64,000 nt of DNA, taken from an uncultured delta proteobacterium. Its GTDB lineage: Bacteria > Myxococcota_A > Polyangia > Palsa-1104. Below the pieces are notes generated by a model, which was not told where the DNA came from, ran no database searches, and saw only the letters and a program-made list of their open reading frames with translations. The stretch lies in assembly GCA_963785725.1 (NCBI GenBank), contig CAWAWS010000002.1, positions 1 through 64,000 on the forward strand. Direction: 5' to 3'. The stretch's first letter is position 1. Every line of letters begins with the position of its first letter. A program made the position numbers and the translations under genes. Below, in pieces: positions 14,594 to 25,101 of this stretch.

Positions 14594-14597
<4 letters not shown>
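13359..14597 (-). CDS. TPR + PEGA-domain protein
   Basis: Signal peptide (APAWA); TPR helices (ATAKYREALRHWDHPGIHYNLALALL); PEGA-like GAVVTFDG...GQHTVVGEKSGY; C-terminal hydrophobic segments ending in F. Confidence 0.85.
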
Positions 14598-18337
<3,740 letters not shown>

Positions 18338-21079: not shown

Positions 21080-21775
21080 TCACACCCCGGCGAACCACTC
21101 GTAGCCGCGGTCCTCCCAGTAGCCTTGCGTCCGCGTCGGTAGGAAGCTCACCTCGGTGATGTACTTGACCATCTTGTAGCCAAGCTTGACGGCGGAATAG
21201 AGGCGCAGGGGCGCGCCGTGGCCCGGCTGAAGCGGCTCGCCGTTCATGCCATAGGCGAGGATCGACTGCGGGTGGAGCGCGCTCTCGCGATCCCAGCAGG
21301 AGTAATAGCCCGAATCGAACGAGCGGAACTCGAGGTACGGCGCACGCCGATCGGCGCCGACGACCTCCGCCAGATCGCGCACCCGAACGCCGTGCCACGA
21401 AGCGACCGCCGACCAGCCCTCGACGCAGTGGTGCCGCACGCGCACGTCGGTGCGTGCCATTCGCTGCAGCGCTTCGAGATTGAACGATCCCGGCCGCGCC
21501 ACCATGCCCCCGACACGCAGCGCCCATCCCGGCGGCGCGAGCGGTACGGTCGGCGAGATGTAATAGGTGGGGAACCCGCCGGGCGGCGTATTCGCCGATT
21601 CCGGAAGCTCGCGCGCTCGGCGATGGCTGCTGAAGAGCCCGCGTTGAGCCGCATCGTTCCAACGCTCGGAGAGCCCGAGCAGACCCTGACGCGGACGGTC
21701 GCTGCTGCAGGCGGCGATCGAGGCAGCGGCACCGAAGATAAAAGTGCGTCGCGACACGATGGGAGCGCTACTCAC
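21080..21775 (-). CDS. Molybdopterin-dependent oxidoreductase, sulfite-oxidase/MsrP-like catalytic subunit
   Basis: Tat-like SRRTFI; HHCVEGWS with the Mo-ligand Cys; ILAYGMNGEPL...HGAPLRL; GYKMVKY; GYWEDRGYEW. Confidence 0.9.
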   Translation of the reverse strand: MSSAPIVSRRTFIFGAAASIAACSSDRPRQGLLGLSERWNDAAQRGLFSSHRRARELPESANTPPGGFPTYYISPTVPLAPPGWALRVGGMVARPGSFNLEALQRMARTDVRVRHHCVEGWSAVASWHGVRVRDLAEVVGADRRAPYLEFRSFDSGYYSCWDRESALHPQSILAYGMNGEPLQPGHGAPLRLYSAVKLGYKMVKYITEVSFLPTRTQGYWEDRGYEWFAGV

Positions 21776-22415
21776 GCCGGCCTCCGGTGATCATCTCGCT
21801 AATGCTGCGCGGATGAAGCGCGACCAACAGCACGTGGCCGACCGTGAAGAGCGCGAACGCCCCGAGCACCAGCAGGTGCACCGCTCGCGCGGCGTCATAT
21901 CCTCCAAAGGCCGCCGCCAGCCAGTGGAGCTGCACCGGCTTGTAGATGGCGAAGCCGGAGAGCACGATCATGATCGCGAGCAGGAACGCCGCGGTGTACG
22001 CGAGTCGCTGCAGCCCGTTGTAGAGGCCCTGCCTGGGCGCGGTCTGCCGGATCCGCAGATAGTACGCGAGGGTCTGTACTGCGTTGCCTGAGTCGCGCCG
22101 GGGCGAGAAATAGCGGCGCCGCCATTCGCCGCTCAGGGCGAGATAGATGCCATAGGCGAGGCCATTGAGCACGAACAGCCAAGCGAACGCGAAGTGCCAG
22201 GCGCGCCCACCCGCCAGCCAGCCCCCCAGCCGTAGCCAATCGGGAGGTGCGTCGTTCTGGAACGGGTACCAGCCGTAGGGCGCACCCCGGGGACCGAGAG
22301 ACGGAAACGCCGCGAGGATCTGCAAGCCACTGCCCGCCATGATGACCAGGCAAGGCACGTTCACCCAGTGCGTGATGCGCACCATCCACGGCTGCGGGCG
22401 TTTTGTTGGAGCCAT
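21768..22415 (-). CDS. Di-heme cytochrome b (Ni-hydrogenase/thiosulfate-reductase type) membrane partner
   Basis: RITHWVN, AWHFAFAW, YNGLQRLAY, VHL..GHV; four TM helices; GGAGG RBS; overlaps the Mo gene. Confidence 0.9.
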   Translation of the reverse strand: MAPTKRPQPWMVRITHWVNVPCLVIMAGSGLQILAAFPSLGPRGAPYGWYPFQNDAPPDWLRLGGWLAGGRAWHFAFAWLFVLNGLAYGIYLALSGEWRRRYFSPRRDSGNAVQTLAYYLRIRQTAPRQGLYNGLQRLAYTAAFLLAIMIVLSGFAIYKPVQLHWLAAAFGGYDAARAVHLLVLGAFALFTVGHVLLVALHPRSISEMITGGRRE

Positions 22416-22581
22416 CTGTCGCACCTCCGCCGGCCGACGCAGAGAATAAGCGCGACGTTGCTCGACGCCATCCTGTGAGCCCCGCAGCCATACATCCCGG
22501 GCTCCGCTAACGCTCTTCCCGCCTGCAGAGGCGATCGACCAGCGCGCGTCGCAGCGCGGTCGGATCAGCGACCGCCGTCTG

Positions 22582-23394
22582 TTACCGGAGCCTGAGTGCC
22601 TCCTCGAGCGCCTTGCCCTCCTTGCGCGCTTGCGCCCACGTGATCGGGACGACGCGAACCTCGCCCGAATGCTCGGCGTGCTGCAGATGCTTCAATGCTT
22701 CGAGAATCATGCGTCGCTGTAGCTCGCGGTGATGGGGCACGCCGAAGTGGTGACCCATCATGAACGGCGCGAACACGACACGCGGCGGCTTGGCCATCTC
22801 GGACACGTCACGTGCGACCGACATGCTGACGGTAGGAATGCCTCGGCGTTCAATGGCGCGCTGCACGAGCGCGATCGATTGATGACAGATGGGTCAAGCA
22901 GGGCACAGAAGGACGATGTCCGCGTGCTCGCCCAAGACCGCACCGGCGATCTGCTCGGCGAGGTCCAGCTCGACGCGTTCGGGGTCCATGTTGTAGCCGA
23001 TGAAGCTGAAGAAGTGCTCGGTGAGGCCGCCGATCACGCCCTCGGTGGCCAGCTCCTGCAGCCGCTCGATCGGGAAGATAACGTTGAGGTCCTCGTGCGC
23101 GCCGAACGTCGGATACTTGATCTGGTGAATCTCGAGGTCGGCTGGCCGCGCGGTCGACGGTACGCGCCGGAAGGTGTAGTCGCCGATCGGGTGCGCCGTA
23201 TCGAGCGGCAGCGAGCCGCGCGGCTGCACGCCGGCGGTGCTGACGAAGGCCAGGCGGCATTCGGCCAGCGGCTTGCGCATGGACGCGAGGGGGACGAAGT
23301 CGCGCTTCTCGATCATCGATCCCGGATAGCGGTCGTTGATCGTGTGCCATAGCTTGGAGCGCAGCTGCGCGTGATCGTCAGAGGTCGCCGTCAT
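22582..23394 (-). CDS. Selenoprotein of the glycine/sarcosine/betaine reductase B / D-proline reductase PrdB family (Sec at codon 167)
   Basis: ORFs 22894..23394 and 22582..22866 are one frame joined by TGA (22894-22896), reading LLCPA-U-PICHQSIALVQRAIERRGIPTV. Also VSTAG, GDYTFR, DLNVIFP..RL.EL...GVIG and PPR.VF.PF..G. Confidence 0.9.
22850..22882 (-). promoter_or_regulatory. Candidate bacterial SECIS hairpin
   Basis: +12 to +44 after UGA: UCAAU-CGAU-CGCGCU-[CGUGC]-AGCGCG-CC-AUUGA, with G at the second loop position followed by U. Confidence 0.7.
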
Positions 23395-23668
23395 GGATCC
23401 ACTCTCCCGAACGCTTGACCAAGTAGAAGTGCAGCTGAAAAAAGAGATGCGCCAGGGTCGCCGGATCGTGGCGCTCGACGGTGTCGAGGATGAAGCCGCG
23501 ATCGGTCGGCGGCACGTCGAGAAGAAGCTCGAGCGCCACCGTCCACGCCTTGTCGATCTCGCGCCGTCCCGCGTTCTCGTCGCCGTCGCCGAGGTGGAGG
23601 CGAACGAAGCGGATGAGCTTGTCGCGCTCGCCGGCGGCGAGCGCTTCCTTCAGGTATGCGACCGACAT
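23378..23668 (-). CDS. Hypothetical helical protein (96 aa) in the nitrilase-selenoprotein operon
   Basis: AGGAG RBS just after the nitrilase stop; 17-nt overlap with the selenoprotein start; natural amino-acid composition. Confidence 0.8.
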   Translation of the reverse strand: MSVAYLKEALAAGERDKLIRFVRLHLGDGDENAGRREIDKAWTVALELLLDVPPTDRGFILDTVERHDPATLAHLFFQLHFYLVKRSGEWIHDGDL

Positions 23669-23677
23669 GAAAGCTCC

Positions 23678-24607
23678 TCATTCATCCTCGAAGCGCGCCG
23701 CCCGACGCCGGCGGCGATCGACGTCGACGCGGAACACGTCGGGTCGGCCGTAATGACCGGTACAGTCGAAGTTCTGTCGCTCGCGCGCGACCGCGCCAAG
23801 GTCGAGGTCGGCGACGACGAGCGTGCGCTCGTGTGCCAGCGGAGGTACTAGCCACTGACCGTCCGGCCGCGCGATCGCCGTACCGCCATCGTGGAAGACA
23901 CCGTCAGCCGGTAGGCGATCGGCGAGCGGAAAACCTGCCGGGATATCACCGCGGTGGAGGGCCGACGACGCGGACAGCACGAAGACGCGTCCCTCGAGCG
24001 CGACGAAGCGCGTGATGTCGACCGTGTTGCGCACGGATCCCGGCCAGAGCGCGACGTGAATGTCGATTCCATCGGCGTAGAGCGCGTGTCGCGCCTGCGG
24101 CATCCAGTTCTCCCAGCAGTTGAGGACACCGACGCGCGCGTCGTCCACGGCGTGCGCCCGCAGGCCATGGCCGTCGCCTGGCGCCCAGACCAGGCGCTCC
24201 TCGTAGGTCGGCACGAGCTTGCGGTGGACGCCGACCACTCCCAGGCGCGGACTGATGAACAGCGCCGTGCAATAGAGCGAGCGGGAGCCCGGGGTACGCT
24301 CGACGACGCCGAGCACCACGAAGATCCCGTGGCGCGCTGCTTCGGCCGTGATGGCGGCGACCTCCGGCCCGTCGAGCTGAACGGCGGCCGCGACGTAGGC
24401 GGCGTAGGCCTCTTTTTGGCGCGGGTCGTCGAAGCGCGCGCCGTCGGTGAGGCTGAGCCAGAACGGGTAGCCGGGCAAGAATGCTTCACCGAACGCGACC
24501 AGCCGCGCCCCGGTCGCGGCGGCGCGCCCGATCCAAGCGACGACACGCGCCGCCGTCGCCTCGCGATCGAGGAAAACCGGGGCATCCTGTACGCAAGCGA
24601 CGCGCAT
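23678..24607 (-). CDS. Nitrilase (carbon-nitrogen hydrolase, class 1-like)
   Basis: Catalytic triad E (GEAFLPGYP), K (HRKLVPT), C (LNCWENWMP); C-terminal GHYGRPDVF. Confidence 0.93.
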   Translation of the reverse strand: MRVACVQDAPVFLDREATAARVVAWIGRAAATGARLVAFGEAFLPGYPFWLSLTDGARFDDPRQKEAYAAYVAAAVQLDGPEVAAITAEAARHGIFVVLGVVERTPGSRSLYCTALFISPRLGVVGVHRKLVPTYEERLVWAPGDGHGLRAHAVDDARVGVLNCWENWMPQARHALYADGIDIHVALWPGSVRNTVDITRFVALEGRVFVLSASSALHRGDIPAGFPLADRLPADGVFHDGGTAIARPDGQWLVPPLAHERTLVVADLDLGAVARERQNFDCTGHYGRPDVFRVDVDRRRRRAARFEDE

Positions 24608-24681
24608 TCCTTGATCTACGCCAAACGTCTTTGCGACATCGTTAGAGCTTTCGCGACGAATCGATCGACGTAGGGCAACGC

Positions 24682-24888
24682 TCAGTGCCTGCCACGACCG
24701 AGCTGACGTACCGCATCGAGGATGGCTCCGAGCTCGAGGCGCGTCGTATAATTGGGATCGACGAACGCGAGACGCACCATTCCGCCCCCCAAGGTGCGGG
24801 CAACCTCCGGCGGCACATGCGCGGCCATTTCCTTGAGGAATTCGTCGATTCGGTCCTGGAGATGTGGCGCCTCGGCGTTGGTCGTCAT
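24682..24888 (-). pseudogene. Internally deleted peroxiredoxin-like paralog
   Basis: N-terminus MTTNAEAPHLQDRIDEFL, close to the copy at 1394, joined directly to a C-terminal VRLAFVDPNYTTRLE..AIL. The CxxC core is absent. Confidence 0.75.
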
Positions 24889-25101
24889 GCTGACCCCCGA
24901 GAGGCCTACGCCGGACCGGGCGCCAGGTATCGTTAGAAGTTCATCTGTTTCGTATGAACAGACCGGCCGAGTCCGTGTCGCGGCGCCGTGGTCAGCTCGC
25001 GACGAGGCGGTCGAGGCCCGCGAGCGGCCCGCCTGCTTGCTGAATTCGCCCTCCCCGAAACCAGTCCGCCGAGATCAACAGCGAAGAACCCGAAGCTCTC
25101 G

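Follow-up and report, generated by a model that had tools for sequence, protein, structure and literature searches.

Whether an in-frame TGA ends a short protein or specifies a selenocysteine (Sec) within a longer one is the question raised by a minus-strand frame, 23394..22582, in DNA from an uncultured delta proteobacterium (GTDB lineage Myxococcota_A; Polyangia; Palsa-1104). The stretch analysed, termed the window, comprises 64,000 nucleotides (nt) of contig CAWAWS010000002.1 (assembly GCA_963785725.1, positions 1 to 64,000). The sole internal stop of the frame is the TGA at 22896..22894, codon 167, and translation table 11 cuts the frame in two at this point, into 22894..23394 (166 residues) and 22582..22866 (94 residues, with a GTG start at 22866). 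Read through, the frame gives ...DIVLLCPA-U-PICHQSIALVQRAIERRGIPTVS..., also written DIVLL-C-P-A-U-P-I-C-HQSIALVQRAIERRGIPTVS, in which Sec stands in a UxxC motif (U167-P-I-C170) within the local motif C-P-A-U-P-I-C. A hidden selenoprotein of the GrdB/PrdB type had been proposed for this locus from the letters of the DNA (the sequence-only reading), and that proposal was correct in its coordinates, codon number, product length and loop position. The comparative analyses described here indicate that 23394..22582 is very probably a single gene encoding a 270-residue selenoprotein of the GrdB/PrdB superfamily and that UGA-167 is almost certainly read as Sec. The locus contains the following elements.

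22582..23394, minus strand: predicted PrdB/GrdB-like selenoprotein gene, read-through frame of 270 codons plus a TAA stop
22894..22896, minus strand: UGA codon 167, almost certainly read as selenocysteine
22885..22887, minus strand: Cys170 codon (TGT), presumed resolving partner in U-P-I-C; TGC in 56, TGT in 5 and TGA in 19 of 80 related loci
22903..22905, minus strand: Cys164 codon (TGC), upstream Cys of C-P-A-U; a variable position among the 80 loci
22857..22873, minus strand: SECIS-type (selenocysteine insertion sequence) hairpin, 20 nt after the UGA, with a 6-bp stem CGCGCU/AGCGCG and a CGUGC loop
23378..23668, minus strand: 96-residue partner gene, the last 17 bases of which overlap the start of the selenoprotein gene

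A protein search with the read-through product detected 1684 relatives. The statement in the sequence-only reading that standard callers would split this gene was borne out, as 118 of the 120 best database matches were 159 to 183 residues in length and covered only the part before the TGA (58 to 61% of the query). Three of these short matches were checked and stopped at ...LLCPA, one of them being from a RefSeq complete genome. Related loci were collected by a scan of one genome per species, which yielded 131 loci with a relative; the best 80 of the 131 were used for all counts out of 80 loci. These loci spanned Myxococcota, Gemmatimonadota, Acidobacteriota, Armatimonadota, Bacillota, Actinomycetota, Verrucomicrobiota and Thermomicrobiota. 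An alignment of homologs for Cys or Sec at codon 167, as had been suggested, found TGA at the aligned codon in 80/80 loci. The two open reading frames separated only by TGA, with homology on both sides, are one 270-codon frame with 65 to 78% full-length identity to 27 read-through relatives. Constraint on the protein continued after the TGA, with P168, I169, H171, Q172 and S173 and the stretch MMGHHFG at 212-218 being invariant.

A sample of 301 genomes of the phylum of the window contained 50 genomes with PrdB-like matches, and all of the matches (99/99) had an in-frame TGA. Apart from the window itself, these matches were only 26 to 40% identical and, therefore, represent paralogous subfamilies. 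Cys was not found at the Sec position in any of the 80 loci or the 99 phylum matches, and position 170 alternated between Cys and Sec across relatives. Trp or another non-Cys residue at the site had been named as a finding that would speak against Sec; the only instances were two of the 120 best matches, which carried W with identical flanks (APA-W-PICHQS) and which we read, from these flanks in the protein records, as callers' translations of TGA under another code. The extended motif CxxUxxC was upheld in part: the upstream Cys is present in the window but is not a feature of the family, as the position of Cys164 was C in 14/80 loci and A, S, T or V in the remainder.

The GC-rich stem with a CGUGC loop starting 27 nt after the UGA was confirmed at 22873..22857, with a 5′ arm at 22873..22868 (CGCGCU), the loop at 22867..22863 (CGUGC) and a 3′ arm at 22862..22857 (AGCGCG), and was conserved in relatives. 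The stem spans 21 to 37 nt after the UGA, and the loop starts at the 27th base; the range from UGA to loop in the description of bSECISearch is 16 to 37 nt. An alignment of the 65 nt from the UGA onward was gap-free for 81 sequences (the window and the 80 loci; 79 distinct rows), and RNAalifold detected one helix, pairing columns 24-29 with 35-40. All six pairs of the stem were kept in 81/81 sequences. Pair 25-39 was GC in 61, GU in 10, UA in 4 and UG in 4 of the 79 distinct rows and was unpaired in none, while G31 and U32 of the loop were invariant. Overall, 90.4% of cells were paired, compared to at most 63.8% when the 3′ partners were slid.

Codon usage was constrained across the same element. 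Synonymous (normalised codon) entropy among sequences sharing an amino acid was 0.25 for codons 174-179, the lowest value for any 6-codon window in the gene, versus a mean of 0.81 (standard deviation, 0.15) for the 177 other codons. Ala175 was encoded by GCG in 71/71 sequences, Gln178 by CAG in 81/81 and Ile174 by ATC in 60/61, and this fixation held from Bacillus genomes to genomes of 67% guanine plus cytosine (G+C). A change of Ala175 to Ser (GCG to TCG) was accompanied by a change of the Arg179 codon from CGC to CGA or CGG, such that the pair was preserved. Judged on these alignments, synonymous constraint is a stronger argument for an RNA element than covariation, and the hairpin is considered to be beyond chance because it is conserved in relatives and not because of its folding stability.

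The source genome (8.9 Mb in 47 contigs, 88% complete) was searched for the Sec genes, a check proposed in the sequence-only reading, and all were found with scores above the curated cut-offs: selA (557.5 bits), selB (303.0 bits), selD (332.7 bits) and tRNA-Sec (73.4 bits), the last with an anticodon of TCA according to ARAGORN. Both selA and selB were also present in 5/5 Bacillales genomes carrying the cassette. SelB with Sec-tRNA(Sec) would bind the hairpin 20 nt after UGA-167, resulting in the insertion of Sec instead of termination.

The read-through product matched the Pfam family GRDB (PF07355) with 32.5 bits (gathering cut-off, 22), residues 28-163 aligning with profile positions 208-344 of 347. 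The NCBIfam equivalog for PrdB, TIGR04483, was matched over model positions 21-234 of 238 (E = 1.2e-38) with 132.9 bits, below its cut-off of 300, and the selenoprotein-B subfamily, TIGR01918, with 49.1 bits, below its cut-off of 65.45. A classical glycine-reductase cluster of grdE, GrdB and GrdA was observed in a genome of the same phylum, G248 (locus L102, G248:C182:2400-6338). The grdE of this cluster scored 458 bits against PF09338, the 440-residue GrdB contains ...ILTST-U-GTC-TRC-G..., and GrdA, with CFVU (CxxU), is on the opposite strand. In a local alignment, Sec167 fell on Sec355 of this true GrdB, encoded next to grdE and grdA, Cys170 fell on the first Cys and Ser173 on the second, in agreement with the earlier claim that Sec occupies the catalytic position of the family.

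The two proteins are about 26% identical and have in common a strand-U-x-x-C-helix-'IERxGxP' core, but GrdB has a long N-terminal part that is absent from the window protein. GrdB also has a UxxCxxC motif, as stated in the accessible part of a recent review (PMC13188914), whereas the window protein has Ser173 at the second Cys and an extra upstream Cys (CxxUxxC). Likeness to PrdB of the Clostridium sticklandii/Clostridioides difficile type, as described in the same part of that review (PMC13188914), consists of homology over nearly the whole model (270 residues versus 238 model positions) and Sec in UxxC. The differences are a score below cut-off, failure to find the pyruvoyl-group PrdA proprotein, another constant neighbour and carriers that include aerobic soil lineages and Bacillus or Planococcus strains. 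The earlier label 'PrdB/GrdB-like' is supported by the GRDB domain and the alignment of Sec on Sec, but both curated cut-offs were missed and no PrdA/GrdE was found, so that the label holds in a wide sense only.

An AlphaFold2 model of the PrdB-like protein had a predicted local distance difference test score (pLDDT) of 86.1, with a strand at 160-164 and a helix at 168-182. Sec167 is predicted to lie at the end of this strand and the start of this helix, three residues before Cys170. Foldseek detected no match to this model in the PDB at E <= 0.001, and VIA-align (wide) detected only generic alpha/beta folds (best, 9kpr_B; Z, 9.1; root-mean-square deviation, 3.5; 146 residues aligned); therefore, no family was named or excluded by structure comparison. 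A search of PDB sequences with the protein gave nothing significant (best E, 0.36).

PrdB-type selenoproteins have been catalogued since 2005, and the core finding is real but of a catalogued kind. According to the accessible text of the respective surveys, 'Proline reductase PrdB' (pfam07355, UxxC) belonged to the most abundant selenoprotein families in the Sargasso Sea in 2005, with 42 genes (PMC1088965), and the 2008 Global Ocean Sampling survey contained 235 Sec forms and 110 Cys forms of the PrdB family (PMC2398784). Reviews of 2022 and 2026 give, in their accessible parts, D-proline reductase with UxxC, the 2026 table adding one Sec (PMC9312934, PMC13188914). The window gene resembles this catalogued metagenome family in the Pfam GRDB domain, in Sec in UxxC, in being frequent in aerobic environmental bacteria and in being routinely truncated in databases. 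It differs in that the accessible text of the surveys gives a name and a motif and mentions no 96-residue partner, nitrilase neighbour or UxxU.

A homolog of the 96-residue partner gene was located directly upstream of the selenoprotein gene, and overlapped it equally, in 79/80 loci, with 62 to 81% identity. Mean column identity across phyla was 84%, and H25, H74, H80, H92, D28, E31, D93, W42 and W90 were invariant; the protein has no Cys. The AlphaFold2 model of the partner has five helices (pLDDT, 77.7). The conserved 17-base overlap suggests translational coupling of the two genes and, therefore, a complex, such that partner and selenoprotein probably constitute a two-subunit enzyme. The sole locus without a partner gene, in an Armatimonadaceae metagenome-assembled genome (MAG; L029:3950-4017), retains the last ~13 codons (RSGGWI...HDGTL) fused to an unrelated upstream frame, which suggests deletion or replacement of the partner gene at this locus.

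Searches with the partner matched no Pfam or NCBIfam family at cut-off. HAAS was considered as a candidate family and was not trusted, the match being weak, present in 12/27 members and below the 27-bit cut-off (best E, 0.00066). A protein search gave 507 matches, of which the best 120 were all named only 'hypothetical protein', and a profile search of 1.84 billion representatives gave 90 proteins. No credible fusion of partner and enzyme was detected among these 90; one candidate, P0308, looks like a frameshifted, error-laden contig. The model had no fold match in the PDB by Foldseek at E <= 0.001, the best match of the profile to PDB sequences had an E of 0.21, and the ESM Atlas gave no usable match.

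An alternative is that the gene product acts as PrdB in a canonical D-proline (or glycine/betaine) reductase of Stickland-type fermentation, the genes for its partners being located elsewhere in the genome. PrdB is indeed the best NCBIfam match, over nearly the whole model, the Joint Genome Institute (JGI) names relatives 'D-proline reductase (dithiol) PrdB', and a partner gene could be unassembled in a genome that is 88% complete. However, the scores for PrdB and selenoprotein-B are both below cut-off, the constant neighbour is a 96-residue protein without Cys and the second Cys of GrdB is Ser in the window protein. Moreover, PF09338 (PrdA/GrdE) had no match in the source genome, in 49/50 phylum genomes with PrdB-like genes or in 5/5 Bacillales carriers, two of which are represented by complete-chromosome records, although the same search did find grdE in G248, the single genome of the 301 with a match. 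GrdA (PF04723) also had no match in the source genome, in a search that matched nowhere, control included. This explanation is very unlikely and already close to refuted. On this homology evidence, the protein does not belong to the Stickland reductases of D-proline or glycine, and 'proline reductase' is probably a misnomer for the subfamily.

It is likewise highly improbable that the TGA is a real stop, either in a decaying gene or between two small proteins of 166 and 94 residues. A stop would match how gene callers read the locus, and the hairpin taken by itself is unremarkable. A nonsense mutation would not, however, be fixed at one codon in 80/80 loci of eight phyla, protein-level constraint continues beyond the TGA, and the carriers have Sec machinery. 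Furthermore, the second table 11 reading frame starts only at 22866, leaving the invariant PICHQSIAL uncoded. Least likely is a reading of the UGA by a route other than Sec, either under a reassigned code, as Trp or Gly, or by near-cognate suppression. The two W entries could be cited for such a route, but their shared flanks fit a caller's choice of code. In addition, TGA is an ordinary stop for many well-supported genes of this 67% G+C window (ending the partner gene, the nSTAND kinase gene and the molybdoenzyme gene), the UxxC redox motif aligns with the Sec of GrdB, the gene has a dedicated hairpin and the genome has the full Sec machinery.

With Sec at codon 167 as the preferred reading, a second Sec is predicted in a subset of relatives. 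The Cys170 codon was also TGA in 19/80 loci, giving U-P-I-U (UxxU).

UxxU loci: L027, L028, L029, L030, L034, L035, L036, L041, L050, L058, L065, L068, L081, L084, L090, L094, L095, L099 and L100 (e.g., L036:4496-4507)

Four Bacillus strains were among the carriers of these forms, and for one of them a complete chromosome record exists. The two UGAs are 9 nt apart and are followed by a single hairpin, the stem of which starts 20 nt after the first and 11 nt after the second. On a quick gene tree from which the motif columns had been removed, the UxxU label required at least three changes, two of which were forced by well-supported branches, which implies more than one exchange between Cys and Sec. 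The window gene paired with that of a Polyangia MAG (Shimodaira-Hasegawa-like approximate likelihood ratio test, 96) in a part of the tree that also held all 19 UxxU forms. The equivalent of Cys164 was present in 13/19 UxxU versus 1/61 UxxC loci. Known prokaryotic UxxU selenoproteins resemble these 19 relatives in having two Sec two residues apart but differ from the window's own gene, which is UxxC. In the accessible parts of two reviews, the tables list UxxU only for Prx-like proteins, the putative mercuric reductase NF041115 and the FmdB family (PMC13188914, PMC9312934). A literature search, with subscription journals outside its reach, found no paper on UxxU in PrdB, none on the 96-residue partner and none in which 'PrdB-like' occurs together with 'selenoprotein'. 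The UxxU forms and the partner gene are possibly new.

The selenoprotein and partner genes have the following neighbours in the window.

23678..24607, minus strand: nitrilase (CN_hydrolase) gene, ending 9 bases before the partner gene (PF00795, 136.6 bits)
21768..22424, minus strand: cytochrome b561-type membrane protein (MsrQ-like), 157 bases downstream of the selenoprotein gene (PF01292, 90.6 bits)
21080..21775, minus strand: molybdopterin oxidoreductase (MsrP/YedY-like), overlapping the end of the cytochrome gene (PF00174, 113.2 bits)

The best solved relative of the product of 23678..24607 was plant NIT4 (190 bits), with bacterial nitrilases and cyanide dihydratases next in rank; by homology, this neighbour is a true nitrilase. 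A nitrilase homolog was present in 36/80 loci; in 31 of these, it was the immediate neighbour on the same strand (downstream in 25 loci and upstream in 6). It is uncertain whether the cytochrome b561 gene is part of the operon; one terminator-like site was detected between the selenoprotein and cytochrome genes (22470..22453), such sites being no more numerous than in shuffled sequence. Other neighbours were counted within 4 kb of the gene in the 80 loci, as raw counts without a background frequency.

MsrB (SelR): 12/80 loci
TlpA-like thioredoxin domain: 10/80 loci
SufS: 9/80 loci
SufU: 8/80 loci
Molybdoenzyme: 8/80 loci, plus the window (21080..21775)
Cytochrome b561: 6/80 loci, plus the window (21768..22424)
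Mn catalase: 1/80 loci

The oxidative-repair flavour of this neighbourhood is only suggestive, as the counts lack a background frequency. A distinct arrangement was observed in a Pyrinomonadaceae/Chloracidobacterium group (L060, L064, L066, L074, L076, L087, L089 and L098; e.g., L060:1005-5667), in which the cassette is flanked by sufS (605 bits to TIGR01979) on one side and by sufU (170.6 bits to TIGR01994) on the other, an alpha/beta hydrolase gene also being located between the two. In this group, the cassette is located inside an iron-sulfur cluster assembly operon.

By analogy with UxxC selenoproteins and GrdB/PrdB, the nucleophilic attack would be made by Sec167; Cys170 would then resolve the adduct, and the resulting selenenyl-sulfide would be re-reduced by a thiol system. 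The enzyme is probably made together with the 96-residue His-rich helical protein as a second subunit, in place of the pyruvoyl partner PrdA/GrdE, and its gene is predicted to be co-transcribed with the nitrilase gene in the window. Our best guess from the gene neighbourhood, and a tentative one, is that the enzyme reduces a small molecule related to stress or detoxification. We also propose, with somewhat less than even confidence in the proposal as a whole, a distinct two-subunit selenoenzyme with a chemistry new for the family. In this enzyme, a short PrdB-like catalytic subunit would act with an obligate 96-residue subunit that replaces the pyruvoyl protein, the genes would have been transferred horizontally among soil bacteria of at least eight phyla, and the second redox position would be a switch between Cys and Sec. 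Its chemistry would be, for example, the reduction of a nitrile- or cyanide-derived or an oxidatively damaged metabolite, an idea based on the nitrilase, MsrB, TlpA-like, MsrPQ-like and SufS/SufU neighbours. If this proposal is correct, a diselenide (U-x-x-U) enzyme made with two UGA codons and one hairpin would occur naturally in some cultured Bacillus strains.

A number of observations count against parts of this explanation. The 91-nt stretch containing the hairpin folded no better than shuffled sequences (z = +1.18; 176/200 shuffles folded at least as well), and Rfam detected no family in 22000..25000, the only hit being a chance match to a long non-coding RNA at an E of 3.5. Covariation was thin, with one of seven pairs changing on both sides and four never varying. 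The seventh pair (30-34) was G-C in 27 rows and a C-C mismatch in 52/79, including the window, and controls slid by -1 and +3 had covariation scores of 0.136 and 0.088 versus 0.085 for the real pairing. The 81 aligned sequences share descent and are not independent. A search of longer proteins with the C-terminal part for a Cys-for-Sec homolog, itself a weak search, found only a W form (P0068). As the subfamily yielded no such homolog, the comparison of Cys with Sec has to be drawn from position 170 and from the literature count for the wider family. The lack of PrdA in a genome that is 88% complete amounts to 'not found' only. With regard to function, the reading is based on gene neighbourhood alone, in raw counts, and the neighbours point two ways, to nitrile metabolism and to oxidative repair.

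The gene and most of its listed relatives (118/120 best matches) are stored as fragments of 159 to 183 residues, RefSeq complete genomes included; the selenoprotein content of soil bacteria is, therefore, underestimated, and the databases lack the active site. The real reaction is made testable by the constant partner gene, the frequent nitrilase neighbour and the existence of cultured, harmless carriers (Bacillus, e.g., L036 with UxxU, and Planococcus, e.g., L037 with UxxC). The UxxU relatives provide a natural system for studying the decoding of two UGA codons, 9 nt apart, with a single bacterial SECIS, as well as the catalytic contribution of a diselenide.

A promoter scan of the region detected no promoter-like site. 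Among sequencing runs listed as containing this DNA, none was of RNA, and the DNA runs contained it at small shares only. Further along the minus strand of the window, 14594..18337 encodes a 1247-residue protein in which a Ser/Thr kinase domain is fused to a novel STAND NTPase 1 domain (PF20703, 386.8 bits).

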